Source: Amphiscolops sp. MND2022 (taxonomy: Eukaryota). From it: 64,000 nucleotides of DNA. The notes below the pieces were generated by a model that saw only the letters and a list, made by a program, of their open reading frames with translations, was not told the DNA's origin and made no database searches. Shown here piece by piece: positions 6,999 through 31,132 of the stretch (its first letter is position 1; every line of letters begins with the position of its first letter). The stretch lies in contig OZ076409.1 in the NCBI GenBank assembly GCA_964187785.1, positions 6,574,001-6,638,000 on the forward strand, in the 5' to 3' direction. The translations under genes and the position numbers were made by a program.

Positions 6999-7062
6999 GC
7001 TATAACTTACACACACCACTTTCCTCTTTTGGTCCGCCCCCCCCCCCCATTGAGAATGATGG

Positions 7063-7447
7063 GGCTCTTTTCTACCCCCTCCCCCCCACTACCACCAAAA
7101 TTTTTGAAAGCGAATTTCCTTAGAAATTTCAGACTAGCCTTATTAAAAGTAAACTGTTTCTTTCATAACAGGAAGTTCACGTCTATTGGAATAGTTTTTT
7201 GTTTGAACAAAACATTTTCACTCAATTTAACTAATTCAACAAACAATTTTGATCGTATTCACTGTTTTTTGTGACCCAAAACAGGAAGCCATTAATTTTC
7301 TAATCAAAAATGAGTGACTTCATAAGGAAACATAGCGTGAACGAATTTTATTTCTCGATTCCAAATTGTCATACTGGGAATGAGATAAAAATAAAGGTTT
7401 CTTGTTTGTATTCAAGTCTTTTTTAAAATTAAATTTTCACTAATTTC
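7063..7447. mobile_element. Truncated copy of the MITE that forms BIN3 intron 4
   Basis: Starts ggctcttttct..ccaccaccaaa-like and is collinear with 44690-45075; right TIR missing. Confidence 0.7.
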
Positions 7448-7680
7448 CCGTGTTCCAGTCCAGGCTAGTTCCAGACTCCTCTTTTGGCCCCCTCTTTTGA
7501 AAATGATGGGAATGTTGGGACTTATGTTGTGTGGTTTCATTATTGACATCCACTTGGCTTTGTGGAAAGAAAACAGGTTTTCCTTTTTTCCTTTTTAGGA
7601 CTTGTCATATCTAATAACAAAGAAGAGGATAAGAATAAAGATGAAAATATCTTTCTGTTGATAAACAGTGTATTTTGCAG

Positions 7681-7914
7681 GTATCACCTGACTCCGTTGT
7701 CTTACGAGACCCTGGACCATGCTTCTGGCTTCGCCTCGGAGCAGTGTCCAGAGGGCATAGTGGCCATCGCGTCCAACACTCTGCGGATCCTGGCTCTGGA
7801 GAAACTGGGCGCCGTGTTCAACCAGCAGGCCTCTCCTCTCAAGTACACCCCCCGCAAGTTCATCGTGCACCCTCAGTCGTCCAACATCTTCATGATCGAA
7901 GCAGACCACAACAG
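7681..7914 (+). CDS. SF3B3: SF3B3 exon D
   Basis: YHLTPLSYETLDHASGFASEQCPEGIVAI...EADHN(S); inferred donor is non-canonical GG (cag|ggatta). Confidence 0.9.
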
Positions 7915-10483
7915 GGATTATTAATACTTAGCTGGGGGTATAACAATATAACAAACAAGCCGGGAACGTCTAAAGTCGGCGCTATATCTAAGGCTCAAAA
8001 TTGTAAAAGGACTTCAAAGTGTCAAGTATTCTCTTTTACAGGACTCGAAAAACCCAAACGTTGGACCGAATTGGCGCACCGCCAAAGGGGACTCTTTGAG
8101 ATTTTTCGTCCATTCTGTCGCAAATCATCAAAAAAATGAATGGGGGCCCTTTTGGTGAGAAAAAATTGAAAAAAGTCTCACAAGGCCGGAAAAACTGAAA
8201 AGGGGGACCATTTGGGCTTTGTGAAACTCCAGTTGGTTGCAAAATAGGAAAAAAAATAAGAGGGACCATTGGGAGATTTTAAAAAAATCCGAAAAAAAAA
8301 TTTGATAGATTTTTGAACAATGTCATAGTGCCGAAAAATGTAAAAGGGGGACCCTTTGAGATTTTTTGACATCCATTGTGTTGCAAAATATTAAAAAAGT
8401 TGAAGGGGAGACCCTTTGGTGGAATCCAAAAAGGTTCAAAAAAGTCGCATAGTGCCGAAAAAAATCCGAGTGAAAAAACGAGGGGGGATCCTATGTTATC
8501 GATGTTCTGGACATCGATGTTTTTGTCGTGGACGAGGTTCTGGCGTTTCGAGTATGCTTTGGACGTCCGTAGTTCAAGTTGATGATGTTGAACAAAAAAG
8601 TGGACAGATCGCGTTGAACTGACGAAAAAAACTAGCCACTTTAAGAGTCAGGATTTTCTTCGAAAACGCCGACTAAAAAGGACCATGTGTACAATTCCCC
8701 CCTCGCCAAGCGACCGCAGGGGGGAAAATAAGACGCAAGGTTCAAATGCGATGTCGACATCGTTTGCGTTGTTCAAATTTTGGTCCAATAAAAAATTGAT
8801 GTCGACATAATCCTATCCATTACATTGACTGTCATTTAAAAGTTGCTCATTAGATTTTATCATAGAGAAATTTTACGTTGAAATAGGGGCCAATTTATGC
8901 AATTTTAGCTTGTTCCAAGCGTGAATTTCTGCTCTTTTGGACAATAATATCAAAAAATTAGGGTAATTTTTTTTGCCTGAAGTGTCAAAAGAGTTGTAGA
9001 GACAATCCTCTAACTTAGAGAATACTTGAAGTATTTACATTCATATAATGTTCTCTTATTAGTGAAATCTTTTTATTCGAGAACAAAATGTGCTTTTGTG
9101 TTGGGGGAAAATTCGCAAAAAGGTGTACCTGGTGAGAAATTGAACACATGGTCCCAAAAAAATACGACTCAGTAGTTTTTGTTTTGTTTTTTGGTTCGTT
9201 TTTTCCCCATTAAAATTTCGGATTTTCCTACTGTTAGAATTTCGTTTTTCAAGAATTTTTAAATTTCTAAAACCAAAGTTTTTCTGAAAAATGATTATGC
9301 TCACTTCCGCACTTTGTTTTTCTTGTCCAAGAGTGGCGATTGAAGCAAAAGTGTCGAATTTTGACTAGTTCAAAAACCATTTTCTCACCACTTTTTTTCA
9401 CTCAATTCCTTTGGTATTGGTCCCAAACAAAGGATAATGTTGCCTTAAGATTATCTTGAACAAAATCACTTTTGATTAAATTAAGTGGAGTAGATTTTTG
9501 TCATTTCGCTTTGTTATCAAGTAAATTGAAAAATTCGTTGACTTTTTATTTCAGCCTGCCTCATATTCAGTTCAAGGTTAATTCTATTTTAGAGATTCTC
9601 AGAGTTTAAAATCCTACAGTTTAATGCCTCCATTCCACCAACAAATTCTGGACTCATTCAAAATTCAAAATTGGGTTTTCAAGAAGTTTGACTAAAATTC
9701 AGTTACTCCTCGATAATTCTTGATGCCCAATAATGCTTCGAAGGTAATTCCATGTTAGTTCTATACCGTTTACCGGAAAAACTGAGCCTTCTGAAAAGAC
9801 AAGAAATGGGAAAAACGATATCAGCTCAAATGTCACCTCAAAATAATCAATCATTTACTGAGTTTCGGAAAAGGTTTCCAATCTGTGGCTGATAGTTTTT
9901 TAAACTCAGGTCTTCCTTTTCAATAAATAAAGCACTTTTACACTTTTAGCCCCTATTGTATCAACCAAGTTACGTTGTAACATTCGAAGGAATATGCGAT
10001 TTTGAATAATTTTCAAATTTGTGATGGAAGTTCTCAGATAAATAAATACTCAAGTAGGCGTATTGTAAACTTACGAAGCATAGACATGGTCATCATGTTT
10101 GATGGCATCCTTTCATTATTTTTAGTCGGCTTTTCCGATAGAAAAAGTGACTATAGCAATGACTTTTTAACGACCTGCGAACTGACAGATTTCGTATAAC
10201 ATTCGTATAAGTTATAGCTTAGTAACTTCTCATTGCCCCTTGGCCTATAGGTTAACTCGGGTTTCCGAAATCCGAGGTCTGAGAAGCAGCAGTACGTGGG
10301 TTCGAATCTCCCACTGTTTCCAATTGTGGAAAAGCTATTTTCGAGTTTTATGCGTATCCCTTCGTGTATTTTTGTCTCTGCAAATTTGATGAAAAATTTT
10401 CACAACAGTTACCTTTGCTTATTCAAAGAACTTGTTTTTTGGGCCGTTCCCGGTTTGTTTACCATTCGTTTTAATAATCCCCG
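7912..10483. mobile_element. hAT-like TIR-bounded unit coinciding with SF3B3 intron D-E (Introner-like)
   Basis: cagggattattaa ... ttaataatccccg (12/13 inverted match), followed by 8 nt and the cag acceptor. Confidence 0.65.
7954..8679. mobile_element. HINE family 1 copy
   Basis: aacaagccgggaacg..agtcggcgc ... acgccgactaaaaa. Confidence 0.7.
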
Positions 10484-10494
10484 AATGCCGACAG

Positions 10495-10811: not shown

Positions 10812-11280
10812 GCAGAGTTGTTACGATTAAACATGAGGGTAGAATTAAAGCCGGTGGAAAATGCCGGTCGTACTCATAGCTGAGGCTTCATTGAAAAAAC
10901 TTCTATATGCGCTTTCAATCGAGGTCTACTGTGTTACTAGAGTGAATCAGTAACTTAGCAAACAGTTGCTCAGTTATTGAAAAAAAGCTTTTTTGAATTT
11001 TACTGTTTTTGCAAGTCTTCACTTTTTGCAGTTACTTTTTTGCCCGGAGCTGGAAAAAAACTATATGCACACAAATAACAACTTACCTCAGTTCGTTCAA
11101 TGTATTTTCCATGAAAAGAAAAAAATCATTGTTTTCCTGTGTGCTTGTGTTTCGTAATTTTTATTGACTCATTATTTTTGTTTCAAATGCATGTTATTTA
11201 TTTACTCTCCTAGAGGATTGGTGGGTCTCTTCTGATCACATGTAAAAAAACTTCAGATTTGTTTAATAGAAGGAAACGTT

Positions 11281-11870
11281 TTTCATTATTTCTGCTTTAG
11301 CAGGAATATTATTGAATTGAAATCTCAAAATTTCTACTTTTGTCAGTACAATTCTCCGTATGATACTGAATAATTCAGATATTTTGTTCGGCAGTGACTA
11401 TAAGCGTAAGATTAAAGTTCTCAAGCTGCCGACGACAATTCAATTCTCGTGCGATGGAACGAGCGAGTTGTAATTATGCATTCGTAAGCTGACGTCATTG
11501 AGATGAAGCGAGCGAATGTTTGTTATTGTGCTTTCGTTGCGCCGAGTTATTGAGATGAAGCGAATGAGTGTTAGTTGTACTTTCGCGGAGAGCTTCGCCT
11601 GCATTCAAATATATATTTGCTTTACTCCGAGATTTACTACTATTACTACTGAAAGACTGGATTGATTCTAGTCAGAAATTGATTCTAGAAAGAAATACTT
11701 GATGATATTTACATGTACAGATTTTTTAAACAACAGAGTTAAAGGCGGTATAAACTGGTACAGTGATTAATTGTGCGCTAAATAATGATTAAACAGGAAT
11801 GTATTGGTATTCAAGATATGATTCTATTATTAATGAAAGATTAAAGCAGAAATAGTAATGGGCCTATTTT
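11281..11870. mobile_element. HINE-like family 3 copy (diverged)
   Basis: atttctgctttagcaggaat ... ttaaagcagaaatag..ggcctatttt. Confidence 0.65.
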
Positions 11871-12149
11871 TTTAAAAAAAAACTTTTTAAAAATTGGCAC
11901 AGAACGGAAAGAAGACTGTTTTTTCAACTTTTTTTGAAAACATGAAACAAAATGGAGTGCTACTAAAACAGCCGAGAGGAAAGGTTTCCAGCAGAGCATA
12001 AATCTTAGAACTGACTTTGTTTGCTCGGTTGGTGCTTCTGTCAAAAAACAGGATTGTGGAAATGATTTTTTTGAAAATTTGACAATGTGGATAAGTTTTT
12101 TGAATATGGTTTTCATTTTGACAGAAAACGAGTACAATGATAAACTACT

Positions 12150-15100
12150 CACTGATAGCAATCTCCGTTCCCAGGGTGAACAGAGTTGTTTCTATTCAGC
12201 AATTCGTTGAGTACAATATTAGGATCTCTGTGTTGTTTTTTCCAGCACGTGTCACATTTTTTTTGTCATCGTAACCGAAATATTCTATTTCACTTTTTGA
12301 CACTCGCAGCCCCGCATTTGGGCCATATCTTGCAACAACTCATGGAACGTTCGCAGCTTGGTTCTATGAATAAAGTTAAAACTATGAGTGCATAAGTCAA
12401 AGCTGTTTTGTTTAACTTTGTTGGTGGCATAGTGTGTTGTATCTTTGCTATAATTTCAATGAACAGGAGAGAAAGTGGTCACTGTTTGTTGATTGTGTAA
12501 ACAACGTATATCGAAAGTTTGTAATCTCTGCCCCACTCAGGCATGTTTACCAAGGCTGAAGTTCATATGCCGTTTAAGGAGGTGAATCAACCATAACAAA
12601 AATCATTTTGCCGTTTTACAACCAGAACAATCAGTCCAAGGTGATTAAAAATGAAAGCTTCAAGCTACTTGACATTATTTTTTTGCTGGAATTGATCGAT
12701 GATCAAAACAAAGGATACGAGGGAAACACCACTCTACTTTCCAGAAACCAAAATCATTGTTTGAAGGTAATGAGTGCCAAGTTAACATTGCATAGCTAAC
12801 CTCATCAACTCTCTGGCACATTGGGCATTTGATTTCACCATGTATTTTTTCCCTTTCTTTTCAGCTAGAGGAGACAATTTTCATCAGATTTGGGTCCACA
12901 TAAACAATGTCCACAAGAGAGAATTCTTGAACTAATTCCAAAAGTTTTACTTTCATCAGTTTATACTCACTGATTGCTTTCTCCTTTTTTCTTCTGTGAT
13001 ATTTTTTCCAACAAATGTCACAGGACTCTTGGTTGTAATCATTGCAGAAATATTTTAATTCTTTATTGTTCGGCCATTTCTTCCAACAACTCATGGAACT
13101 TTCGCAGCTTGGTTCTACAAATAAAGTTAAAACTATGAGTGCATAAGTCAAAGCTGTTTTGTTTAACTTTGTTGGTGGCATAGTGTGTTGTATCTTTGCT
13201 ATAATTTCAATGAACAGGAGAGAAAGTGGTCACTGTTTGTTGATTGTGTAAACAACGTATATCGAAAGTTTGTAATCTCTGCCCCACTCAGGCATGTTTA
13301 CCAAGGCTGAAGTTCATATGCCGTTTAAGGAGGTGAATCAACCATAACAAAAATCATTTTGCCGTTTGACAACCAGAACAATCAGTCCAAGGTGATTAAA
13401 AATGAAAGCTTCAAGCTACTTGACATTATTTTTTTGCTGGAATTGATCGATGATCAAAACAAAGGATACGAGGGAAACACCACTCTACTTTCCAGAAACC
13501 AAAATCATTGTTTGAAGGTAATGAGTGCCAAGTTAACATTGCATAGCTAACCTCATCAACTCTCTGGCACATTGGGCATTTGATTTCACCATGTATTTTT
13601 TCCCTTTCTTTTCAGCTAGAGGAGACAATTTTCATCAGATTTGGGTCCACATAAACAATGTCCACAAGAGAGAATTCTTGAACTAGTTCCAAAAGTTTTA
13701 CTTTCATCAGTTTATACTCACTGATTGCTTTCTCCTTTTTTCTTCTGTGATATTTTTTCCAACAAATGTCACAGGACTCTTGGTTGTGATCATTGCAGAA
13801 ATATTTTAATTCTTTATTGTTCGGCCATTTCTTCCAACAACTCATGGAACTTTCGCAGCTTGGTTCTACAAATAAAGTTAAAACTATGAGTGCATAAGTC
13901 AAAGCTGTTTTGTTTAACTTTGTTGGTGGCATAGTGTGTTGTATCTTTGCTATAATTTCAATGAACAGGAGAGAAAGTGGTCACTGTTTGTTGATTGTGT
14001 AAACAACGTATATCGAAAGTTTGTAATCTCTGCCCCACTCAGGCATGTTTACCAAGGCTGAAGTTCATATGCCGTTTAAGGAGGTGAATCAACCATAACA
14101 AAAATCATTTTGCCGTTTTACAACCAGAACAATCAGTCCAAGGTGATTAAAAATGAAAGCTTCAAGCTACTTGACATTATTTTTTTGCTGGAATTGATCG
14201 ATGATCAAAACAAAGGATACGAGGGAAACACCACTCTACTTTCCAGAAACCAAAATCATTGTTTGAAGGTAATGAGTGCCAAGTTAACATTGCATAGCTA
14301 ACCTCATCAACTCTCTGGCACATTGGGCATTTGATTTCACCATGTATTTTTTCCCTTTCTTTTCAGCTAGAGGAGACAATTTTCATCAGATTTGGGTCCA
14401 CATAAACAATGTCCACAAGAGAGAATTCTTGAACTAGTTCCAAAAGTTTTACTTTCATCAGTTTATACTCACTGATTGCTTTCTCCTTTTTTCTTCTGTG
14501 ATATTTTTTCCAACAAATGTCACAGGACTCTTGGTTGTAATCATTGCAGAAATATTTTAATTCTTTATTGTTCGGCCATTTCTTCCAACAACTCATGGAA
14601 CTTTCGCAGCTTGGTTCTACAAATAAAGTTAAAACTATGAGTGCATAAGTCAAAGCTGTTTTGTTTAACTTTGTTGTTGGCATAGTGTGTTGTATCTTTG
14701 CTATAATTTCAATGAACAGGAGAGAAAGTGGTCACTGTTTGTTGATTGTGTAAACAACGTATATCGAAAGTTTGTAATCTCTGCCCCACTCAGGCATGTT
14801 AACCAAGGCTGAAGTTCATATACCGTTTAAGGAGGCGAATCAACCGTAACAACAATCATTTTGCCGTTTTACAACCAAAACAATCAGTCCAAGGTCATTA
14901 AAAATGAAAGCTTCAAGCTACTTGACATTATTTTCTTGCTGTAATTGATCGATGATCGAAACCAAAGGATACGAGGGAAACACCACTCTACTTTCGAGAA
15001 ACCAAAATCATTAATGTTTGAAGGTAATGAGTGCCAAGTTAACATTGCATAGCTAACCTCATCAACTCTCTGGCACATTGGGCATTTGATTTCACCATGT

Positions 15101-18100
15101 ATTTTTCCCTTTCTTTTCAGCTAGAGGAGACAATTTTCATCAGATTTGGGTCCACATAAACAATGTCCACAAGAGAGAATTCTTGAACTAATTCCAAAAG
15201 TTTTACTTTCATCAGTTTATACTCACTGATTGCTTTCTCCTTTTTTCTTCTGTGATATTTTTTCCAACAAATGTCACAGGACTCTTGGTTGTAATCATTG
15301 CAGAAATATTTTAATTCTTTATTGTTCGGCCATTTCTTCCAACAACTCATGGAACTTTCGCAGCTTGGTTCTACAAATAAAGTTAAAACTATGAGTGCAT
15401 AAGTCAAAGCTGTTTTGTTTAACTTTGTTGGTGGCATAGTGTGTTGTATCTTTGCTATAATTTCAATGAACAGGAGAGAAAGTGGTCACTGTTTGTTGAT
15501 TGTGTAAACAACGTATATCGAAAGTTTGTAATCTCTGCCCCACTCAGGCATGTTTACCAAGGCTGAAGTTCATATGCCGTTTAAGGAGGTGAATCAACCA
15601 TAACAAAAATCATTTTGCCGTTTTACAACCAGAACAATCAGTCCAAGGTGATTAAAAATGAAAGCTTCAAGCTACTTGACATTATTTTTTTGCTGGAATT
15701 GATCGATGATCAAAACAAAGGATACGAGGGAAACACCACTCTACTTTCCAGAAACCAAAATCATTGTTTGAAGGTAATGAGTGCCAAGTTAACATTGCAT
15801 AGCTAACCTCATCAACTCTCTGGCACATTGGGCATTTGATTTCACCATGTATTTTTTCCCTTTCTTTTCAGCTAGAGGAGACAATTTTCATCAGATTTGG
15901 GTCCACATAAACAATGTCCACAAGAGAGAATTCTTGAACTAATTCCAAAAGTTTTACTTTCATCAGTTTATACTCACTGATTGCTTTCTCCTTTTTTTCT
16001 TCTGTGATATTTTTTCCAACAAATGTCACAGGACTCTTGGTTGTAATCATTGCAGAAATATTTTAATTCTTTATTGTTCGGCCATTTCTTCCAACAACTC
16101 ATGGAACTTTCGCAGCTTGGTTCTACAAATAAAGTTAAAACTATGAGTGCATAAGTCAAAGCTGTTTTGTTTAACTTTGTTGGTGGCATAGTGTGTTGTA
16201 TCTTTGCTATAATTTCAATGAACAGGAGAGAAAGTGGTCACTGTTTGTTGATTGTGTAAACAACGTATATCGAAAGTTTGTAATCTCTGCCCCACTCAGG
16301 CATGTTTACCAAGGCTGAAGTTCATATGCCGTTTAAGGAGGCGAATCAACCATAACAAAAATCATTTTGCCGTTTTACAACCAGAACAATCAGTCCAAGG
16401 TGATTAAAAATGAAAGCTTCAAGCTACTTGACATTATTTTTTTGCTGGAATTGATCGATGATCAAAACAAAGGATACGAGGGAAACACCACTCTACTTTC
16501 CAGAAACCAAAATCATTGTTTGAAGGTAATGAGTGCCAAGTTAACATTGCATAGCTAACCTCATCAACTCTCTGGCACATTGGGCATTTGATTTCACCAT
16601 GTATTTTTTCCCTTTCTTTTCAGCTAGAGGAGACAATTTTCATCAGATTTGGGTCCACATAAACAATGTCCACAAGAGAGAATTCTTGAACTAATTCCAA
16701 AAGTTTTACTTTCATCAGTTTATACTCACTGATTGCTTTCTCCTTTTTTTCTTCTGTGATATTTTTTCCAACAAATGTCACAGGACTCTTGGTTGTAATC
16801 ATTGCAGAAATATTTTAATTCTTTATTGTTCGGCCATTTCTTCCAACAACTCATGGAACTTTCGCAGCTTGGTTCTACAAATAAAGTTAAAACTATGAGT
16901 GTATAAGTCAAAGCTGTTTTGTTCAACTTTGTTGGTGGCATAGTGTGTTGTATCTTTGCTATAATTTCAATGAACAGGAGAGAAAGTGGTCACTGTTTGT
17001 TGATTGTGTAAACAACGTATATCGAAAGTTTGTAATCTCTGCCCCACTCAGGCATGTTAACCAAGGCTGAAGTTCATATACCGTTTAAGGAGGCGAATCA
17101 ACCATAACAAAAATCATTTTGCCGTTTTACAACCAAAACAATCAGTCCAAGGTGATTAAAAATGAAAGCTTCAAGCTACTTGACATTATTTTCTTGCTGT
17201 AATTGATCGATGATCGAAACCAAAGGATACGAGGGAAACACCACTCTACTTTCGAGAAACCAAAATCATTAATGTTTGAAGGTAATGAGTGCCAAGTTAA
17301 CATTGCATAGCTAACCTCATCAACTCTCTGGCACATTGGGCATTTGATTTCACCAATTTTTGATTTCACCAAGGTATTTTTCCCTTTCTTTTCAGCTAGA
17401 GGAGACAATTTTCATCAGATTTGGGTCCACACAAACAATATCCACGAGAGAATTCTTGAACAAATTCAAAAAGTTTTACTTTCATCAGTTTATACTCACT
17501 GATAGTTTTCTCCGTTCCCAGGGTGAACAAAGTTGTTCCCACTTGGCAATTTCGATGAGTTCGATTTCATGATCTCTATGCTGATTTTTTTTCCAACACA
17601 TGTCACAGAACTCTTGATTGTCATCACACCAGAAGTATTTCAGCTCAATATTGTTTGGCCTAATCTTCCATACAACTCATGGAACTTTCGCCGCTTGGAT
17701 ACACTCAGCAACTTCGATTCGTTCGATTTTATGATCTCTGTGATGATTTTTCCAACAAATTTCACAGAACTCTTGGTTGTAATCATTGCAGAAATATTTT
17801 AGTTCACTATTGTTCGGCCATTTCTTCCAACAACTCATGGAACTTCGCAGCTTGGTTCTACAATTAAAGTTGAATGCATAAGTCAAAGCTGTTTTGTTTA
17901 ACTTTGTTGGTGGCTTTGTGTTTTGTATTTTTGCTATACTTTCAATGAACAGGAGAGAAAGTGGTCACTGTTTGTTGATTGTGTAAACAACGTATATCGA
18001 AAGTTTATGTAATCTCTGCCCCACTCAGGCATGTTAACCAAGGCTGAAGTTCATGTACCGTTTAAGGGGGCGAATCAACCATAACAAAAATCATTTTGCC

Positions 18101-21100
18101 GTTTTACAACCAAAACAATCAGTCCAAGGTGATTAAAAATGAAAGCTTCAAGCTACTTGGCTTTTTTCTTGCTGGAATTGATCGATGATCTAAACAAAGG
18201 ATACGAGGGAAACACCACTCTACTTTCCAGAAACCAAAATCATCAATGTTTGAAGGTAATGAGTGCTAAGTTATTATTGCATAGCTAACCTCATCAAGTC
18301 TCTGGCACATTGGGCATTTGATTTCACCAGGTATTTTTCCCTTTCTTTTCAGCTAGAGAACACAACTTTCATCAGATTTGGGTCCACATAAACAATGTCC
18401 ACAAGAGAGAATTTTCGAACAAATTCAAAAAGTTTTACTTTCATCAGTTTATACTCACTGATAGCTTTCTCCGTTCCCAGGGTGAACAAAGTTGTTCCCA
18501 CTTAGCAATTTCGATGAGTTCGATTTCATGATCTCTATGCTGATTTTTCCAACACGTGTCACAGAACTCTTGATTGTCATCACAGCAGAAGTATTTCAGC
18601 TCAATATTGTTTGGCCTAATCTTCCATACAACTCATGGAACTTTCGCCGCTTGGATACACTCAGCAACTTTGATTCGTTCGATTTTTTGATCCGTGATGA
18701 TTTTTCCAACAAATTTCACAGAACTCTTGGTTGTAATCATTGCAGAAATATTTTAGTTCACTATTGTTCGGCCATTTCTTCCAACAACTCATGGAACTTT
18801 CGCAGCTTGGTTCTACAAATAAAGTTAAAATTATGAGTGCATAAGTCAAAGCTGTTTTGCTTAACTTTGTTGGTGGCATAGTGTTTCGTATCTTTGCTAT
18901 ACTTTCAATGAACAGGAGAGAGTGGTCACCGTTCGTGGATTGTTTAAGCAACGTATATCGAAAGTTTATGTAATCTCTGCCCCACTCAGGCATGTTTACC
19001 CAGGCTGAAGTTCATATGCCGTTTAAGGAGGCGAATCAACCATAACAAAAATCATTTTGCCGTTTTACAACCAAAACAATCAGTCCAGGGTGATTAAAAA
19101 TGAATTCAAGCTACTTGGCATTATTTTCTTGCTGGAATTGATCGATGATCGAAACAAAGGATACGAGGGAAACACCACTCTACTTTCCAGAAAGCAAAAT
19201 CATCAATGTTTGAAGGTAATGAGTGCCAAGTTAACATTGCATAGCTAACCTCATCAAGTCTCTGGCACATTGGGCATTTGATTTCCCCAGGTATTTTTTC
19301 CCTTTCTTTTCAGCTGGAGGAGACAATTTTCATCAGATTTGGGTCCACATAAACAATTTCCACAAGAGAGAATTTTCGAACAAATTCAAAAAGTTTTACT
19401 TTCATCAGTTTATACTCACTGATATTTTTCTCCGTTCCCAAGATGAACAAAGTTGTTCCCACTTAGCAATTTCGATGAGTTCGCTTTCATGATCTCTATG
19501 CTGATTTTTCCAACACATGGCACAGAACTCTTGATTGTCATCACAGCAGAAGTATTTTAGCTCAATTTCGTTTGGCCATATCTTCCATACAACTCATGGA
19601 ACTTTCGCAGCTTGGATACACTCAGCAACTTCGATTCGTTCGATTTTATGATCTATCTCTGTGATAATTTTTCCAACAAATGTCACAGAACTTTTGGTTG
19701 TAATCATTGCAGAAATTTTTTAGTTCACTATTGTTCGGCCATTTCTTCCATACAACTCATGGAACTTTCGCAGCTTGGTTCTACAAATATAGTTAAAATT
19801 ATGAGTGCATAAGTCAAAGCTGCTTTGCTTAACTTTGTTGGTGGCATAGTGTTTCGTATCTTTGCTATACTTTCAATGAACGGGAGAGAGTGGTCACCGT
19901 TTGTTGATTGTTTAAACAACGTATATCGAAAGTTTATGTAATCTCTGCCCCACTCAGGCATGTTTACCAAGGCTGAAGTTCATATGCCGTTTGAGGCGAA
20001 TCAACTATAACAAAAATCATTTTGCTGTTTTACAACCAAAACAATCAGTCCAGGGTGATTAAAAATGAAAGCTTCAAGCTACTTGGCATTATTTTCTTGC
20101 TGGAATTGATCGATGATCGAAACAAAGGATACGAGGGAAACACCACTCTATTTTCCAGAAAGCAAAATCATCAATGTTTGAAGGTAATGAGTGCCAAGTT
20201 AACATTGCATAGCTAACCTCATCAAGTCTCTGGCACATTAGGCATTTGATTTCACCAGGTATTTTCTCCCTTTCTTTTCAGCTGGAGGAGACAATTTCCA
20301 TCAGATTTGGGTCCACATAAACAATTTCCACAAGAGAGAATTTTCGAACAAATTCAAAAAGTTTTACTTTCATCAGTTTATACTCACTGATATTTTTCTC
20401 CGTTCCCAGGGTGAACAAAGTAGTTCCCACTTAGCAATTTCGATGAGTTCGATTTCATGATCTCTATGCTGATTTTTCCAACACATGTCACAGAACTCTT
20501 GATTGCCATCACAGCAGAAGTATTTTAGCTCAATTTCGTTTGGCCATATCTTCCATACAACTCATGGAACTTTCGCAGCATGGATACACTCAGCAACTTC
20601 GATTCGTTCGATTTTATGATCTCTGTGATGATTTTTCCAACACATGTCACAGAACTCTTGATTGTCATCAAAACAGAAGTATTTCAGCTCAATATTGTTT
20701 TGCCTAATCTTCCATACAACTCATGGAACTTTCACAGCTTGGATACACTCAGCAACTTCGATTCGTTCGATTTTATGATCTATCTCTGTGATGATTTTTC
20801 CAACAAATGTCACAGAACTCTTGGTTGTAATCATTGCAGAAATATTTTAGTTCACTATTCTTCGGCCATTTCTTCCAACAACTCATGGAACTTTCGCAGC
20901 TTGGTTCTACAAATAAAGTTAAAATGTGAGTGCATAAGTCAAAGCTGTTTTGCTTAACTTTGTTGGTGGCATAGTGTTTTGTATCTTGGCTATACTTTCA
21001 ATGAACAGGAGAGAGTGGTCACTGTTTGTTGATTGTGTAAATAACGTATATCGAAAGTTTATGTAATCTCTGCCCCACTCAGGCATGTTTACCAAGGCTG

Positions 21101-21800
21101 AAGTTCATATGCCGTTTAAGGAGGTGAATCAACCATAACAAAAATCATTTTGCCGTTTTACAACCAAAACAATCAGTCCAATGTGATTGAAAATGAAAGC
21201 TTCAAGAAACTTGACATTATTTTCTTGCTGGCATTGATCGATGATCAAAACAAAGGATACGAGGGAAACACCACTCTACTTTCCAGAAACCAAAATCATC
21301 AATGTTTGAAGGTAATGACTGCCAAGTTAACATTGCATAGCTAACCTCATGAACTCTCTGGCACATTGGGCATTTGATTTCACCAGGTGTTTTTTCCCTT
21401 TCTTTTCAGCTGGAGGAGACAACTTTCATCAGATTTAGGTCCACACAAACAATGTCCACAAGGGAGAATTCTTGAACAAATTTAAAAAGTTTCACTTTCG
21501 TCAGTTTATAATCACTGATAGCATTCTCAGTTCCCAGGGTGAACACATTTGCTTCCACTTAGCAATTTCGAAGAATTTGATTCTATGATCTCTGTGCTGG
21601 TTTTTCCAACGAATGTCACAGAACTCTTGATTGTCATCATAGCAGAAGTATTTTAGCTCACTATTGAGACGCCTGCAGAGACGCGTTTTGGCCATTTCTT
21701 CCAGCATCTACTCATATCCTTAAGATGTAACTTGCCCAGCTTGGATCTACGAATAAAACTAAAACTATGAATGCATAAATCAAAGTTGTTTAATTTGTAG
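12150..21800 (-). repeat. Tandem array of about 11-12 units (about 751-754 bp proximally, about 960-1130 bp distally) derived from a decayed coding region
   Basis: Near-identical ORFs recur at 12608, 13359, 14110, 15615, 16367, 19057, 20022 and 21150; one further copy at ~23460-24200. Confidence 0.95.
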
Positions 21801-22649
21801 GTGGTACACTTTATTCACTTTTTGTTCCTATGTTTTCATTAGAGAATAGGGAAAATGGAGACTATTTGGCAATTGTGTAAAAATCGTAAATTGAAAATTC
21901 GTGTCTGCTCTACTCCACACTGGCAAGTCATGTTTGATTGCCGGTGAAGAGGTGGCCTAACAATAAAAAAATCGTTTTCTACACAGTTGAAAATTCGTGT
22001 ATCCTCTACCCCACACAGGCAAGTTATGTTTGATTGCCGTTGAAGAGGTGGCATAACGATAACAAAAAATCGTTTTCTACACTCAGTTGAATAGCTATGA
22101 CAAAAAAATGTTGCACGTAAATTACTGTACGAAAAGACGTCAAAGTAAATACTGATCGAAACGTTTCTGATCGCTGCATTGACGTGACCTCAAGAGAAAA
22201 GACAAGATAGACTGATAAGTGTTCAATTTCAGTTTTAAGCGTGCTGAAGGAGCAAGTGAGATTAGTAAACACATTTCAGCAATATAAACTGCAGTGGTAG
22301 ACGTTAAGATTGAGAACTAGGAAAAGAAACAGTGACACATCAATAACTTCTTTCAGAGGCACATTATTTTACTGATATTTTGTTGAACAGTTTGTGAACC
22401 ACTGCAGACTGTAGGTAACAATAAATTACATTTTGATGTGTTTTTGGTACCTTCTTCGTATTGTTATTTGTAAGTAACAATGAGTGAAACTAACCAGTTG
22501 AAAGAACGGAAAACGCTTAGATCATGAGAAGCACCAGGAGAGCAATTGAAATCAAAAAATGATGAAAACAGCAGTAAAAATGGCAACTTGGCGGTTGGGT
22601 GATCCGATTAACATTGGCCGTTTCAAGTGATTTTGACCTTAACAGTTAC

Positions 22650-24752
22650 CCTTAACTAGTAGACTGATGAAACAGCCTTTTGCATTGGGAATAGGGATGT
22701 GGACTATGCGCGGGTTGTTCAATTGGCACAGCCTTGGGGAATCTCAGTGCCACTACAGCGTTTGGCAGAGGTTGGATAATTGATTCTGTAGAAATGACAT
22801 GATATTCGTGCACTTCGACGAAACTTTCGTTCTCCAATTTTGACGGCTTGAACCATCCGATTACTCGAAATCCTTTACGGCAGTTTGACGTACTTGACAC
22901 AGAAGGGTTCTGAATCCCATCCACAAATGCTCCATCAGTTCTAAACTCAACCAAATTGAACGCTGCTTCGTTTTGTGGCCTCACACTCACAATAATGTTG
23001 TGGTTCACAGAGAGTGTTGTGGTTCACAGTAATATTTTTGGCGAACTTCACTGAAACGAAAGACTTCTGGTGAGAAGTTCTTAAGAAAGTTGAGGACACT
23101 GAACCAAAGCTCGCAGATCCCTTTCCTTCAATCCACTCTTCAACAAACACACAACGTTTCTTTAACTGTTTGTCCATCACAGAAATTTCCGCTGCACAAG
23201 TAAACAGTAGAAATGATGTTTTTTAAAGTAGATATGATGTATTTTAATTGCCGTTCATCAGTAACAAAGTGGAAACTTTTATTATCGGTTTCGTTTTCGA
23301 TGCCGAACGCTTGCATTTCGTTGAACGATAAATTCATTTGAGAATTCGGTACTGGGATAAGTGGTTCAGTAGTAGATATCAAAAGGTTTTGGGAGTCAAT
23401 CATGGTCTCTTTAATTCGGAGTTCAATTAGTTCCACTATTTTTCCCGGATAAGTTTCGGGGTGATATCTTCATATGCCGTTTAAGGAGGCGAATCAACCA
23501 TAACAAAAAATCATTTTGCCGTGTTACAACCAAAACAATCAGTCCAAGGTGATTAAAAATGAAAGCTTCAAGAAACCTGACATTATCTTGCTGGAATTGA
23601 TCGATGATCAAAACAAAGGATACGAGGGAAACACCATTCTACTTTCCAGAAACCAAAATCGTCAATGTTTGAAGGTAATGAGCGCCAGGTTAACATTGCA
23701 TAGCTAACCTCATGAACTCTCGGGCACATTGGGCATTTGATTTCACCAGGTATTTTTCCTTCTTTTCAGCTAGAGAATAAAATTTCTTAGTTTTAGGGTC
23801 CACACAAACAATGTCCACAAGGGAGAATTCTTGAGAACAAAATTTTAAAAGTTTCACTTTCATCAGTTTTTACTCACTGATAGCATTCTCAGTTCCCAAG
23901 GTTAACACAGTTGCTCCCACTTAGCAATTTCGAAGTTCGAATTTATCATCTCTGTGCTGGTTTTTCCAACAATTGTCACAGAATTCTTGATTGTCATCAT
24001 AGCAGAAGTATTTTAGCTCACTATTGAGACGCCTGCAGAGACGCATTTCGGCCGTATCTTCCAACATCTACTCGTATCCTTAAGATGTAACTTGCCCAGC
24101 TTGGATCTACGAAAAAACTAAAAATTTGAATGCCTAAATCAAAGCTGTTTAATTTGTAGGTGGTACATATTACTCGCTTTTTGTTCCTATATTTTCATTA
24201 GTGAGTAGGGAAAATGGAGACTATTTGGCAATTGTGTAAAAATCGTAAATTGAAACTTCGTGTATCCTCTACCCCACACAGGCAAGTTATGTTTGATTGC
24301 CGTTGAAGAGGTGGCATAACGATAACAAAAAATCGTTTTCTACACACAGTTGAAAATTCGTGTATCCTCTACCCCACACAGGCAAGTTATGTTACTACGG
24401 TTCAGTAGTAGATATCAGGTTTTGGGAGTCAATCATGGTCTCTTTAATTCGGGGTTCCATTAGTTCCACTATTTTTCCCGGATAAGTTTCGGGGTGATAT
24501 CTTGTTACGATCCTACTCTTTCTCGCTAGAGGTAATGAGCGCCACTACCTTGTTGCTTCTTGGGTCTCCAAAAAGAAAGAACCGGTCGTCGTTTATTTGG
24601 TGGAGCTTGTTTTTAGACAGCATACTCTGACGACCGGACGTTGCTTGTTTGAACTTCAGTGGCTCAACTGCGTGTTTCCCATGTGAATTTACTAAAAACA
24701 ACCTTTTATCTTCGCAGTCGGATGCAAAATCGGAGTTTATTTTTAAATTCAT
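22650..24752 (-). pseudogene. Decayed Cys-rich ORF of a mobile element; likely source of the tandem array
   Basis: Chain of frameshifted minus-strand ORF fragments (24752, 23611, 23436, 23180, 23008) that includes one array unit. Confidence 0.4.
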
Positions 24753-25208
24753 CTGCCAAGGTCTCTAGCAGAAACAGGATTGAGGGAGCTTGCGAATGCG
24801 GTGTTCTTTTTAGGTGAGAATCTATTTTTGTTCGGGTTAGTTCCTAAACACAGAAATGTTGGAAAAAGTAATAACAGAAAAGAAAAATATTTTCTTGTAA
24901 AATAATAATTTGACACCTCTAGAAGAATACAAAAGTGTGGCGTTGTAACAAAAAGAGGAGAGATTTGATATTGTCAAAGAAGGGAGTGAGGTTTGAGGTG
25001 ACATGGAGATACGAAAAACGAATCACAGATAAAAAAAGTCGCAATCTTTGTTGAAGGGAATATCGAAAAATTACTGTAATCTCCGCTGATGTTGGAACTA
25101 AATAACTTTTGAAGTAGAGTTCGTTTCGTTAATTTCCGGCGACAATTATAGTTAATATTTAGGGGGAAATGGAGAGGTATGTGTTGTGGAAATGATGGAT
25201 GATTATCT

Positions 25209-25595
25209 AACAAGACGCCCGCTAAGCACCGGGATATTTTCCTCCCTTTTCGCCTTCATCACTTGAGCCATAGCTATTTTGGGAGAAGAATAGGATCTAA
25301 ATGATAAGATCTAAAATTTATTGATTTTAGATCTTATTCCCTTTAGATCTTAATCCCATTTTTACTTTAGATCTTTTTCCATCAGATTTTATACTCGTCC
25401 TGAAATTTTAGATGTTGTTCGCTTTGGATCTTATTTCCTTTTTTGACTTTAGTTCTTATTCCTCCCTCCTACTAAAATAGTCCCTCCTACGGTGGTGAGT
25501 CAAGTGATGGAGCGTGGAGATTTGGCAGAATTTGGAAAAAAACGCAACACAGATGATGAGTTTCCTCCCCAATGAAAATGTGGGTCGGAAAATAA
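25209..25595. mobile_element. HINE-like family 2 copy
   Basis: aacaagacgcccgctaagcaccggg ... gggtcggaaaataa, with internal agatct microrepeats. Confidence 0.6.
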
Positions 25596-25999
25596 TAAAA
25601 CAAGTTAGATTATTAGCCAATCTGCAAAATGCATCAGTAAATGATGCAGCAAACCTTCCGCAGGTTTATTAGCCCGCACTGTGTCCAAAAAGGCAAGTGT
25701 AAACAAGTACAGCAAAAAACATGGAAGCCAGGAATTTTGTTTAATTCGTAAATTCAATGTGTAGGGATCACAACATATATTTATTTTGATATTTTCAATT
25801 ATTTGTTTCAAGTTTTTGCAAAACTTTTCCTGCCCACTTTTAATAGTAGAGCTAGGGTTCACATCTGACATTGTATCGGAATGGATGCAGACCACTTTTT
25901 TAGTAGAGCCATAAACATATGAGGTACAGTCCACTTTCATAGAGCCAGAAACATGTAACTTTGGTTTTTGAACGCAATGGACGAACAGATCAAGTACTT

Positions 26000-28336
26000 G
26001 CTGCGGGTTTGCCTGCCATTTTTGAACATTGAAGTTTCTAAACAGCTCATAGTGAATAAAATGTTCCGCTCTTTCACGTTTATTGACTTCGGATATGTCA
26101 CTGAAATCGGTTACGAAGCAAAGGAGGCCCCATGGTCTTATGAGGTTGATTGGGTAAACAGGAACTGTTTACAGGGTTGAGCTCGCAAAGACGTCGACGT
26201 AAGTCAGATGTTTGACCGACGTAAATTGACAATGCATCTTTGGTACCAACCAAAAAGTAGGCAAAACCAGCTTCTGATGTAATTCTATTTTCCGAGGTCG
26301 AAAAGGAGAAACTTTGGCTAAGTCTGAAAGTCAGCTTGATTAGCAGATGTTCGCGCTGGCCTTCCCATGAATTCATCTCACTGTTTGAGCAAGTAATTTT
26401 TCAATTGGAGCTAACGTTGCTGTTTCCTCGCCGGAAAAAAGTTATATTACCTGAATTCTGAACTCGACTTACTAATAAAGTTGTTCCCTTTCCCGGGGAC
26501 AATATTCTGTCCGAAAAAAAATCAATTTTGTGGCGATTTTCCCAATAGTTTCCCCAGTAGCTTTGCGTATGGTCATTTCCATAAAATTTTTCGGCGGGAA
26601 TTAGGTCCGTCTGAGTAAAGAGCCTGTATAATTATGAACGAAACCTGTTTGCTGGTGCAAAATCACGCTAAACCACCCATTTTCAACCAACATGTTGAAC
26701 TTCATTAGTTTTTTTTCGTTGACAGACTGTTTGAAAACACATATTTGACCCTGTGATACCTTCAAAGGTCGAACGTTCATGGTTATCCTCAGCAGTGCAT
26801 TTTCATTGCAGTAGAGAAGTTCAGGTTCAAAACATTGATGGTTGAGTGCTCTCTTTATTGCTAGAGGGGCAGTGTTCCAGTTACTCGGGCAGTTCATTTT
26901 CACCTCATCGATGCTCTTTAGCTCCCTAACGACCTGACCCGATGAAACCCCACGGATTTGAGCATGTATGGCTTTCAACTCAGCAGGTTAGTTGTCCGAG
27001 TCTCAAAATTTACATTTTTCCGCAAACCTTTCCAAAATTTCTTCGTTCGTTTGCCGATTTACCAGGAACGGATAACATCTTGAGAAACTGCCTACCTATA
27101 AAGTCTGCCATTCTAACCCATTTCCTTCTAACGAAAAGATCTCTACACTTGTAATTATGATTGGAGATGTCCATAATAAACGACCTTGCGGTGGTAATTG
27201 TTTCTGATCTCCGGTGCCAAATATCAGAACGCCTTCGAAAGGCACATAAGTGTCTCGTTTTTTTGAGGATGTGGTCTTTTGTAGCAAACTCTTCCGCAGA
27301 TACCATACCAATCTCTTCAAAATACAAAATCGATCATTTTCATTATTACTCGTTTCAGAAGGTCGTTTTTCAATTTCTGTGACCCTTGCTGCACAATGCA
27401 GTCCACGTTCAGTGTTTTTGAAACTGGTGAGCAAAAATTGTCATGAACATGCATTCCGGAAAACTGCACACCTCTTTCACTGCTCAAAGAAATAAATATC
27501 ACATTTAACCTCTGACACAAAGCGTACAAAGGAGTATTTTTGATCAAAAACGTTTTTCAGAACCGGGCATCCCTACTACTACTAAATGATGTTTGAAAAA
27601 AAAGCGGAACTTTTGTACTCGTCAATTGTTTTCATAAGCCTCTTAACCGTAGATTGCTGGTCGTTGAAAACAACGTTTTGCGATTTAAGACGATTGTATT
27701 GCAAAGGGCAATACAAGTTGCAATCAATGATGAACTGGATGTCAGGCTTACCTGTATCCTGAACTAAGTCATGAATTTGCGAAGCAACTGCGAAGAGTTT
27801 TTCCATAACAGGTCTCAAAAGTTCACCTGTGTATTCTTCCTGCAAAGCATTATAAACGATAGTTGGCGTTTCGTTATTTGTGTTTTCATCGAGTGATGTC
27901 CGGAACGCCACATTTGCACCAATCTGACGGTCTTGAGAAAAATGCGATCCGGGACATATATGACTCCTTTAAGGATAAACGTTTTCAGAAACCGACTATC
28001 TCACGTTCTATGATCGTCTCAGCGTCGTAACAAGACCAGCTGTTTGAAATGCTTTTATAATTGTACCCCGTCTTCATATAAATCGAATTCTGTTTCGTAT
28101 TTACCAAATTGAAGTAAAAACTTGTTAGGAAATAGGGCCATGTCGGGGAATTACATTTGGAAACACAACGACCACAGGTTTCGATTGATCTTCACGACTA
28201 TCGACAAGCCTGCTGATGTCGTGATTGTTAAGTATGTCTAAATAATTGGACGCGAAAAATCTATACTGCTGGCTTTGATTCGAACCACCCAGAAATAAAA
28301 TTTTGAAATGATACCACAAGGGCTTGTTTTTTTGCA
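26000..28336 (-). pseudogene. Frameshifted PIF1-family helicase with C-terminal GIY-YIG nuclease (Helitron/Helentron-like remnant)
   Basis: PIF1-like motifs EEIGMVS, PFEGVLIFGTGDQKQLPP, ITMNV..SQGQ and MTIRKATGET, followed by FAYFL...IYVGQTSDLRRRL (GIY-YIG); many frameshifts. Confidence 0.75.
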
Positions 28337-28367
28337 AATCGTAACAACTCTGAACCTAATCGTCAAG

Positions 28368-28615
28368 GTCTGAAACTGAACCCCCCATCGATCACGGTGG
28401 GCTATGTGTACGCGTACCGGGTGCCGGACTCGGGAGACAGCTTCGAGTTCATCCACAGGACTGAGATGGAGGATGTGGCTCTGGCGGTGTGCGAGTTCAA
28501 GGGGAGGGTGTTGATCGGGGTGGGCAAGTGGCTGCGACTGTACGACATGGGACGGAAGAAGTTGCTGAAGAAGTGCGAGAACAAACATCTCACTAACAAG
28601 ATCATCACCATCAAG
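28368..28615 (+). CDS. SF3B3: SF3B3 exon F
   Basis: GLKLNPPSITVGYVYAY...GRVLIGVGKWLRLYDMGRKKLLKKCENKHLTNKIITIK; tcaag acceptor, gttgtt donor. Confidence 0.92.
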
Positions 28616-29558
28616 GTTGTTGAATGAATAGAACAAAAAAGAAAGAATAAAACAAGAAAGAACATGAATGAAACAAGGAAAACAAGCCGGGAACGGCCAA
28701 AGTTGGCGCTATATCGAAGGCTCAAAATTGTAAAAGGGGGACCATTTGGGCTTTGTGAAACTCCAGTTAGTTGCAAAAGATGAAAAAAATTAAAGGGGGA
28801 CCCTTGGGAGATTTTTAAAAATTTCCGAAAAAAATTTAAAATGAGATTTTTGAAGTGTCACAGTGCCGAAAAATGTAAAAGGGGGCCTTTGGGATTTTTC
28901 AACATCCATTCTCGGGCAAAATTGAAGGTGGGACCCTTTGGTGCAGTCCAAAAATTTTCGAAAAAAGTCTCATAGTGCCGAAAAAAAATCCAAGTTAAAA
29001 ACACCAAGATAATAAAAGTTGGATCCTGAGTATGTTTTCGAGGTTTTGGACGTTGGTTTTGTTTTGGACGAGGTTCTGACGTTTCCAGTATGTTTTGGAC
29101 ATCCGTAGTTCAAGTTGAACAAATGAACGAAAAGTGGACTTTACGCGTATAAAAAAACTACCCGCTGTAAGAGTCGGGCACTTTTCTTCAAAAGCGCCGA
29201 CTAAAAAACACTGTTTGTTCAGACACTTCTTTCCAGTTGTTTATGGTCTAGTTTCTGACTGTTCAATTTGTTTGGTACTTTTTGTTTACAAACCAGAACG
29301 CCTCGTGTGAAAGATGATATCTGGAAAATTTCAATGAAGTGAATGAATTCCATGCTTTTTATTCCTTTGTCAAATTTTTGTACAATAAAATATTTGGCAA
29401 CAAACGAAAACCGTTGTGCATAACACATTGTTTTCCACGGTAGTTTTCCCAAGAGGAAAAAAGCATTAAAATAATTTTAAAAAAAACAGTATATTCCGTT
29501 CAAAAACCTTTTAAAAGCATTTTTCGTGAAACAACAAACTGTCTAATTAACAACCTTG
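28612..29558. mobile_element. hAT-like Introner forming SF3B3 intron F-G
   Basis: TIR caaggttgtt/aacaaccttg; perfect 8-bp TSD atcaccat at 28604-28611 and 29559-29566. Confidence 0.85.
28681..29208. mobile_element. HINE family 1 copy (nested)
   Basis: aacaagccgggaacggcc hairpin ... gcgccgactaaaaaa. Confidence 0.7.
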
Positions 29559-29570
29559 ATCACCATGCAG

Positions 29571-29758
29571 ACTGTCGGGTACCGGATCTTTGTCACCGAT
29601 GTGCAGGACAGTGTGACCTTTCTGCGCTACAAGCCCATAGAGAACCAGATGATCATTTTCGCCGATGACCCCAACCAGAGATTTGTGATGTCATCCTGTG
29701 TCGTGGATTACAACACAATCGCAGTGTCCGACAAATTTGGAACCATTTCCATCATCAG
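29571..29758 (+). CDS. SF3B3: SF3B3 exon G
   Basis: TVGYRIFVTDVQDS...ENQMIIFADD...DKFGTISII(R); cag acceptor, gtaata donor. Confidence 0.93.
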
Positions 29759-31132
29759 GTAATATTATTTCACTAAAGCACTGTTGTGAGTACTAATTAT
29801 TGCTGAACTGTTCATCTCACAATAGCTGATACAGTTGAATCCACCTAAATCGTATCACCAAGGACCGAAAAAAATAGTACGAAGAAGGAGAGATACGAAT
29901 TAACGACGGATGATATTACTAAGGTTGTCGCGAAAAGGCGTGTCTCGGATACCGACGAATTGAACGAAGATCCGAACTATCAGGATACGAATTAACCGGA
30001 ATTGACTCCATGTTGCACGTTTTTTCTCCAGCTATCACTTTTATAACTTTTTCTAAACTTCAAGGAAATGCCTGAGTCGTAGAGCTCCATGGCCTTGTGT
30101 TTAATGATGATAAATTTATTTATCCTGATTTCAATACCTAAACATTCTTCAAGTTAAATACATTTAAACAATATTTTGACTATAAAATAAGGAAAAGACT
30201 TCCAAAGGGCTTGTTTTCGCTCAGTGGGAAGCATCGTGGCATCAAATTTTTTTTTAAATTAAGTTTCAGTAACTTAGTTGGTGGAAAGTCATGAGTAATA
30301 ATTGAACCGCACTTCCACTCAAAAGATAAAAAAATACTTTCATAATATGATACTTTCATGATATGAACAATATCATACCGCTTCTGCTGTTGTACAAGAG
30401 TTCAAACGTGACACTTAATTTATACATTGCTGCAAACTTCGAAATAGTAACTATATTTTTAGAAGTTAAGAAGGCGTTAAGATGGAGTTCTGAAGTTACT
30501 TTTCAGCCTTCAAATTAGACGTTTAACTCTGAAATAGTTCACAAGGAGGCTCTGTTTAACAAATTGAATTCGTTGAGAAGTCGGCCTAAACTGGCATAAA
30601 AAACGCAAAAAATCTGAAGTTTTTGTCGTTCACCGAATGTTTTGCCTTTGCCTTCAAATAATTCCCTTGCTGGTACGTTTTACTCTCAATATAATGCGTT
30701 GGCCCGGTAAGCAGACGACGTGGATTTCAATCCTGCTCATTGCCACATATGATATATGCATTTTGAACTATAGAAATAGTGAGTTTGAATGAAACTTGTA
30801 TAATAAGTGATATAATTTAGGTATAACATTGGGAATTTGAATATAGCGCTTGTTTTCTGCGTGTTACAATGCTAAAGGTGGGTGTTTGAATCTACTCAAC
30901 GTCGGAGTTTTTGTCCAAATTGAGTGATACTAATAGCAGTTTCTGACAGCGTATATAACCAAACTATATTTCGGATGCAGCGCATGGAATGCGGATATAA
31001 CATATACGGTTGTTTTAGTATTATACTGACTTCGGTTCATTTTCTCGAAGGCCATTTTTAGTCAACGCGTTAAAAACTGGAATTTGCCCAACTTATAACA
31101 GTCATCTTTTTTAAATCTCAGTGGTCGATTAA

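Follow-up and report, generated by a model that had tools for sequence, protein, structure and literature searches.

How can a gene that exists once in its genome keep its reading frame when a transposon has landed in the middle of one of its exons? The question is raised by a 64,000-nucleotide stretch of the acoel Amphiscolops sp. MND2022 (contig OZ076409.1, positions 6,574,001 to 6,638,000; this whole stretch is referred to as the window, and coordinates are those of the window), where the gene for SF3B3 carries such an insertion. An earlier note on this DNA had proposed that the insertion became an intron and recoded the protein, an ancestral M-Q becoming I-K. Our analysis makes a modified account likely: a MITE inserted in the single-copy SF3B3 gene is removed as an intron, with I-Q changed to I-K, and the same introner-like architecture recurs in other genes.

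A DNA transposon interrupts the SF3B3 coding sequence

The exons in the window are collinear with the SF3B3-like proteins that Symsagittifera roscoffensis and Convolutriloba macropyga encode, between residue ~568 and the stop codon, and the start of the gene precedes the window. The coding exon upstream of the insertion (28368–28615, plus strand; best junctions an acceptor at 28367/28368 and a donor after 28615) matches acoel SF3B3, with 98% identity to the closest relative (P0003) and 94% to a cluster with the S. roscoffensis and C. macropyga proteins; the exons on the two sides of the insert are 96–99% identical to the closest relative. A further model from that relative, P0009, matches residues 727–1217 of human SF3B3 with E = 1.4e-220. 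Judged by these alignments, the gene is the SF3B3 (SAP130) orthologue, and the animal belongs with the acoels of that cluster. It is the only SF3B3 locus in the 1.07-Gb, 1929-contig genome, and all six matches to the relative's protein fall within window positions 7664–33171 (C1).

Inspection of the sequence and a repeat search both identify an 8-bp direct repeat, ATCACCAT, at 28604–28611 and again at 29559–29566 (plus strand). Between the two copies, which match at 8/8 positions, lies an insert of 947 bp (28612–29558) that opens with CAAGGTTGTT (28612–28621) and closes with AACAACCTTG (29549–29558), and that presents the donor motif CAAG/GTTGTT from position 28612 (slashes mark predicted exon-intron boundaries). 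The right copy of the target site duplication (TSD) is followed by GCAG at 29567–29570 and then by ACT from 29571. The insert ends form part of an inverted repeat of 12 nt (28610–28621 and 29549–29560) that is 100% complementary, its outer AT being contributed by the palindromic end of the TSD; none of 2000 random pairs of window pieces had an exact terminal inverted repeat (TIR) of at least 12 nt. These repeats, together with translation of the frames, confirm the layout and positions that the earlier note had reported.

The upstream frame (28394–28615) translates to a peptide ending NKIITIK, in which the left TSD copy supplies bases of the I-T-I codons and the last four bases of the exon, CAAG at 28612–28615, are transposon sequence. 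From the right TSD, positions 29559–29759 read ITMQTVGYRIF, the downstream coding exon itself occupying 29571–29758 on the plus strand (TVGYRIFVTDVQ...ISIIR). The upstream frame meets an in-frame TGA at 28625–28627, 10 nt into the insert, so read-through of the insert is ruled out. A DNA transposon with an 8-bp TSD interrupts a formerly continuous SF3B3 coding exon.

The insert is a member of a hAT-like MITE family

When the 3' 345 nt of the insert were used to query the genome, 328 first-look candidates were recovered, and two other copies used as queries gave 367 and 350; matches in other copies end exactly at window position 29558. The 5' 87 nt of the element matched only itself, and the 5' end of the family was obtained from full copies, which are ~360–445 bp long, begin with CAAGGTTGTT and lie between 8-bp duplications. 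Inspection of 73 loci yielded 37 copies with both TIRs and a TSD matching at 6/8 positions or better (9 at 8/8, 19 at 7/8 and 9 at 6/8), a level that random 8-mers reach with a chance of ~0.006; the copies inspected are those most similar to the three query copies rather than a random sample. A majority consensus built from 11 copies is 417 bp long, and window positions 29211–29558 are 90.6% identical to its positions 76–417, the SF3B3 copy being in the sense orientation of the consensus (plus strand). Only ~420 bp of the 947-bp insert is MITE sequence, and the copy is longer because a different repeat is nested at ~28681–29207, with the consensus broken between ~60 and 76 and the boundaries of the nested repeat approximate.

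The elements are small and numerous, have 10-nt TIRs and lack coding capacity. hAT transposons prefer targets of the form nTnnnnAn and end in the motif YARNG. Within the first 31 copies the second TSD position is T in 16 and the seventh is A in 15, and the TIR starts with CAAGG, which would fit YARNG. Like hAT-superfamily MITEs, the family has an 8-bp TSD and short TIRs, and these two characters, taken with the bias towards T2 and A7 in the TSD, point to the insert being a copy of a hAT-like non-autonomous element (MITE). A Pfam search of 18 proteins (12 ORFs from the 17.5-kb upstream intron and six flanking ORFs of copies L080, L085, L087 and L095) returned no families.

The nested repeat of ~527 bp (no strand assigned) is itself abundant, with 8987 first-look candidates; 40 scored matches were 78–82% identical and covered query positions 38–608, mostly 70–596, and 20 copies were aligned. 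It contains four to five internal direct repeats of ~24 nt (AAAAGGGGGACC-like), and close to its ends lies an inverted 10-mer (AGTCGGCGCT and AGCGCCGACT). ORF translations resembling KGGPFG, as in the nested repeat, also occur in other introns of the window, at ~31.2–31.6, 32.2–32.7, 33.5–33.9 and 38.4–39.0 kb. Separately, many TSDs of the MITE family end in AAG or AGG (CTTCAAGG, GGTCCAAG, TAATGAAG, CTGCAAAG, ACCACAGG, GTTCCAGG and TTCGGAAG), resembling the 'protosplice' sequence of exon ends.

The predicted splice junction exchanges four bases

Junctions between every GT or GC donor and every AG acceptor close to the exon ends were scored with the S. roscoffensis protein as guide. The highest score, 290, went to 28615/29571 (AAG/GTTGTT ... 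CCATGCAG/ACT), the only junction that needs no indel relative to the orthologues; it defines a putative GT-AG intron of 955 nt in phase 0 (28616–29570, plus strand). The donor would lie within the 5' TIR. The 3' TIR is devoid of AG, and the AG at 29569–29570, four bases beyond the right TSD, is the first AG past the element. The sequence AATTAAC beside the 3' TIR is conserved across family copies, and here CTAATTAAC (29543–29551, plus strand), which resembles a branch-site consensus, is a candidate branch site with its A at 29550, 20 nt upstream of the acceptor. Measured against the usual metazoan consensus, AAG/GTTGTT is a weak donor, and the tract preceding the acceptor is poor in pyrimidines.

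We infer from these features that the insert is removed as a GT-AG intron, with the length and frame of the protein kept. Given junction 28615/29571, the predicted mRNA gains four element bases (CAAG) and loses four host bases (GCAG). The proposal that caag replaces the host gcag is thus borne out in the DNA, since only this length-preserving, in-frame GT-AG junction gives the exchange, and so is the proposal that the intron retains the former coding bases at its 3' end; in both cases the splicing itself is predicted. Perfect excision, which would give I-T-M-Q-T, was rejected as a splicing product: none of the nine equivalent TSD registers has GT-AG, GC-AG or AT-AC ends. A search of Rfam with positions 28300–29900 gave only a chance-level tmRNA match (11.3 bits, the gathering score being 47), and the predicted fold of the putative intron is not notable (z = -1.22).

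The mechanism that we propose is as follows. A non-autonomous hAT-like MITE would have inserted into the continuous SF3B3 coding exon, its TIR supplying a donor four bases in (CAAG/GT) and the element also bringing the branch-site-like AATTAAC beside its 3' TIR. The spliceosome would then take the first downstream AG, which belongs to the host and lies four bases beyond the right TSD, so that four transposon bases would replace four host bases in the mRNA with length and frame kept, most likely turning I-Q into I-K. The intron would end in the old bases, 12 nt in all, one of which would since have mutated, hence the M-Q reading. On this proposal the SF3B3 gene owes its survival to removal of the insert by the spliceosome, as an intron.

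The ancestral residues were probably I-Q

The claim that M-Q became I-K stands in part. K follows from the predicted splicing; ancestral M does not agree with the four closest acoel sequences, all of which have I. Both models of the closest relative, P0003 and P0009, read KIITIQTSG (I-Q) and the S. roscoffensis and C. macropyga proteins read I-H. The earlier note had further expected relatives without the intron to carry Q, with K confined to those that have it; in the protein models the four acoel relatives carry Q or H and, as expected, none carries K. Judged by these protein models, the intron may be absent from the relatives. The earlier note's statement that the human protein has Q-T here (GIQTIG) is correct, the human sequence being YISGIQTIGHR with I993-Q994 at the site.

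If M-Q was nevertheless the allele before insertion, both residues were changed to I-K. The intronic remnant today does read ATG CAG (M-Q), and the right TSD is intact at 8/8 positions, so the remnant has decayed little. But I occupies the first position in 4/4 acoel relatives, and among 155 SF3B3-like sequences (P0003, 149 proteins that represent 50% clusters, and five others) that position is I in 80, L in 61, V in 8 and M in only 3. A later change of one intron base is moreover unremarkable, because the copy has diverged by ~9% from its family consensus and position 29567 would be unconstrained within an intron. We therefore regard an M-Q ancestor as unlikely, and the G at 29567 more probably arose afterwards, within sequence that had become part of the putative intron.

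The comparison thus favors I-Q, and not M-Q, as the probable ancestral pair. A likely history is that the site read ATH CAG before insertion, that the C of the element kept Ile and that its AAG made Lys, and the likely coding effect is a single Q to K substitution at a variable site (human Q994). The second position among the 155 sequences is Q in 34, H in 28, R in 14, S in 12, E in 11 and K in 11, with others in the remainder. The consequence for SF3B3 is probably mild because the affected position varies so widely among eukaryotes.

Other readings of the SF3B3 insertion

The insert could be spliced differently, either from a donor 3 nt further in, adding one residue, or by exon skipping, and the protein would then not have I-K. 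The second-best donor (GTT/GTTGAA at 28619) is indeed in frame with the same acceptor and scores 274, and donors elsewhere in SF3B3 are non-standard, with GC at 6999 and 10812 and neither GT nor GC at 7915. However, the alternative donor has no AG on its exon side and its product mismatches the length of all orthologues, and against skipping, both flanking exons retain their 96–99% identity to the relative. We consider such splicing quite improbable.

Another reading is that the transposon landed at the 5' edge of an intron that was already there, and transposon copies are common within other SF3B3 introns. This we judge very improbable: the right TSD and GCAG run in frame into the downstream exon and the orthologues have the residues I-T-x-Q-T with no gap, a gapless match that only duplication of continuous coding sequence explains. 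That we are dealing with a dead copy of the gene, or with an artefact of assembly, is just as doubtful, for although the same-species gene models are broken around these introns (P0011), such breaks are expected where introns start with GC or in another non-standard way, and this sole SF3B3 locus in 1.07 Gb has all exons open and highly conserved and carries a clean TSD, the mark of a real insertion.

Neighboring SF3B3 introns

Exact inverted repeats bound three consecutive SF3B3 introns: 7915–10494 (11 nt), 10812–28367 (16 nt) and the putative new intron 28616–29570 (12 nt). The terminal inverted repeats of the other four introns are 5–7 nt, and among 2000 random pairs two reach 11 nt and none 12 nt. 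GC donors are present in two of the seven introns, as judged from homology-guided junctions.

The 17.5-kb intron at 10812–28367 has a GC donor (AAAG/GCAGAG) and a 16-nt inverted repeat, CAGAGTTGTTACGATT (10813–10828 and 28337–28352), which over its first 11 nt is similar to the TIR of the MITE; 8 nt beyond the 3' repeat lies a TSD-like sequence, CGTCAAGG. By its sequence it looks like an older transposon-made intron. The intron at 7915–10494 (AACAG/GGATTATT ... GCCGACAG/TTTC) has no register with GT-AG, GC-AG or AT-AC ends, there being no GT, GC or AT start, and has an exact 11-nt inverted repeat, GGGATTATTAA, at 7914–7924 and 10471–10481; it is possibly a non-canonical transposon-derived intron, or else an assembly base error. 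Queries of the animal's own genome with the ends of these two introns gave nested abundant repeats or nothing, and no family for their elements. The intron at 6999–7680 has a GC donor (CCAG/GCTATA) and no terminal inverted repeat.

The own-species model P0011 consists of one exon with read-through into the 17.5-kb intron, and the models of the closest relative span all three sites. Tandem arrays occupy parts of the 17.5-kb intron (~12.8–15.5 and ~17.5–21.8 kb), with ORFs of 122 amino acids every ~751–754 bp (12861, 13612, 14363 and 15117) and a CAAAGTTGTT motif at 17528, 18487 and 19448 (a period of ~960 bp); the array units that were tested gave no Pfam match.

Sister copies split other genes in a frame-dependent manner

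The element was removed in silico, together with one TSD copy, from all 37 copies, and the open codons on either side were counted. At least 45 open codons extend to each side of the restored empty site in 16/37 copies (13 on one strand only, three on both), so that at the DNA level sequence-similar copies split ORFs at unrelated gene positions. Under a relaxed version of this ORF test 16/30 MITE copies passed against 1/29 copies of a control family, the abundant nested repeat (Fisher P = 2.3e-5), and positions 800 bp away in the same loci passed in 12/55 cases. Six host genes, SF3B3 included, can be named by Pfam or homology. One copy splits the N-terminal domain of ATP-citrate synthase between profile positions 113 and 116, the halves matching with E = 2e-37 and 1e-44; other genes found by Pfam to be split are an HMG-CoA-lyase-like gene (HMGL-like), DAP3 and SPACA9, along with a 7tm_1 receptor whose match is below the curated cut-off. 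Pfam found no transposon protein families in the ORFs that flank the copies.

The first AG after the right TSD lies at a distance of 1 modulo 3 in 10 of the 13 copies whose strand is unambiguous (binomial P = 0.0016), the distances that fit being 4, 4, 4, 4, 1, 1, 1, 7, 7 and -2. At such distances a donor at element base 4 keeps the frame, as equally would one at base 7 or 13. With SF3B3 excluded the fit is 9/12 (P = 0.0039), and non-genic copy orientations are at chance level (13/42). The genic copies are also predominantly in the sense orientation relative to the gene (12/13, P = 0.0034), and NNAG immediately follows the TSD in 6/13 of them compared with 2/42 non-genic copies (P = 0.0013). 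A target-site preference for NNAG was considered and rejected, since only 2/42 non-genic copy orientations have it; this rarity argues that NNAG in the genic copies reflects a survival filter rather than targeting. Exonic insertions would persist only where the next AG restores the frame, leaving a small coding change of transposon bases, and we propose that every gain that survives recodes one or two codons with bases of the transposon.

Three of the 13 genic copies (L075, L062 and L107) break the first-AG rule. The copy in the HMG-CoA-lyase gene, L075, has lost its GT and its TSD ends in CAGG; a GC donor (CAG/GCAAGA) used with the AG in the right TSD would remove this insert exactly. L062 and L107 are in ORFs without a named gene, which may be spurious.

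Two of the split genes can be compared with relatives at the insertion site. In ATP-citrate synthase the predicted mRNA encodes P and the remnant L or F; the closest relative (P0171, 87% identical) also has P, and distant acoels and most animals have Q. P in P0171 fits an insertion shared with the relative and spliced by the first-AG rule, or P may instead be ancestral. At the DAP3 site the remnant encodes Q and the predicted mRNA K, and the comparison says nothing either way because the relatives read D.

Two copies have further peculiarities. The ATP-citrate synthase copy (L044, G000:C7:71189033-71192378) and the SF3B3 copy lack the same stretch of ~13 nt after the TIR, and with it another possible donor, TTAAG/GTG. 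An 859-bp copy (L038, G000:C2:13594641-13597971) in a host ORF without a Pfam name starts with GCAG rather than CAAG, the same as the four host bases past its right TSD, so that the mRNA predicted for it is identical to that of the uninterrupted gene; either conversion or a compensating change may account for this.

Relation to known transposon-derived introns

Insertions of the maize hAT elements Ac/Ds in exons were reportedly found by Wessler and colleagues, in the late 1980s and 1990s, to be spliced out by way of a donor within the end of the element and an acceptor at another place, changing a few residues. Those were laboratory mutant alleles with partial function, whereas here the arrangement is the assembled, perhaps fixed, state of an essential single-copy gene and is seen across the family.

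Introners are the closest parallel. As described by Gozashti et al. 2022 (PMC9860276), introner families with TIRs and TSDs bring a 5' splice site and take over a 3' site, and others draw sites from the neighboring exon; an Aureococcus family there has an 8-bp TSD and leaves four introner bases plus the TSD in the mRNA. The 2025 survey by Gozashti et al. (PMC12130899) adds a sea urchin to the animals with introners. The acoel family resembles introners as portrayed there (PMC9860276, PMC12130899) in that similar short elements with TIRs and TSDs occupy many unrelated genes, one splice site being brought and the other recruited. It differs from them in that the predicted acceptor lies beyond the TSD and the outcome would be a length-neutral exchange of four bases, rewriting codons, rather than precise removal or added codons; the present host is moreover an acoel with a 1-Gb genome, and its splicing is deduced from DNA.

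A second animal parallel is the tunicate Fritillaria borealis, in whose genes, according to a review (PMC11282704), MITE insertions are spliced out as introns whose junctions carry TSD-like repeats. The two animals share MITE-derived introns and such repeats, but the Fritillaria introns are there described as non-canonical and as needing an altered spliceosome (PMC11282704), whereas the putative SF3B3 intron is GT-AG; its neighbor at 7915–10494 does have non-standard ends and TIRs. Our searches found no publication linking introners to Xenacoelomorpha or treating intron gain by transposable elements in acoels, and six acoel names were absent from 12/14 supplementary files searched of the 2025 survey (PMC12130899). 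An introner-like family in an acoel would be an instance of a known phenomenon, and what differs is the host lineage, the predicted acceptor beyond the TSD and the length-neutral four-base exchange.

Where new animal introns come from is still argued, and clear cases with intact insertion scars are few. The SF3B3 locus displays such an event at base resolution, with both TSDs, both TIRs, a donor motif in the element and the displaced coding bases kept, and the sister copies turn the single case into a testable rule (first AG, frame-filtered, sense-biased) that predicts both the survivors and the coding change. We lean, with some reserve, towards a working intron-making system of hAT-like MITEs, in which the TIR provides the donor, the 3' end the branch site and the host the next AG, with survival filtered by frame and with SF3B3 having acquired three consecutive TIR-bounded introns, one of them with non-standard ends. 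If so, Xenacoelomorpha would gain its first described introner system, and the three SF3B3 introns would hint that acoels, like some tunicates, tolerate unusual transposon-made introns. Confirmation from RNA would make acoels an animal model for intron gain by transposons, in which transposon bases become coding while the length of the protein is unchanged.
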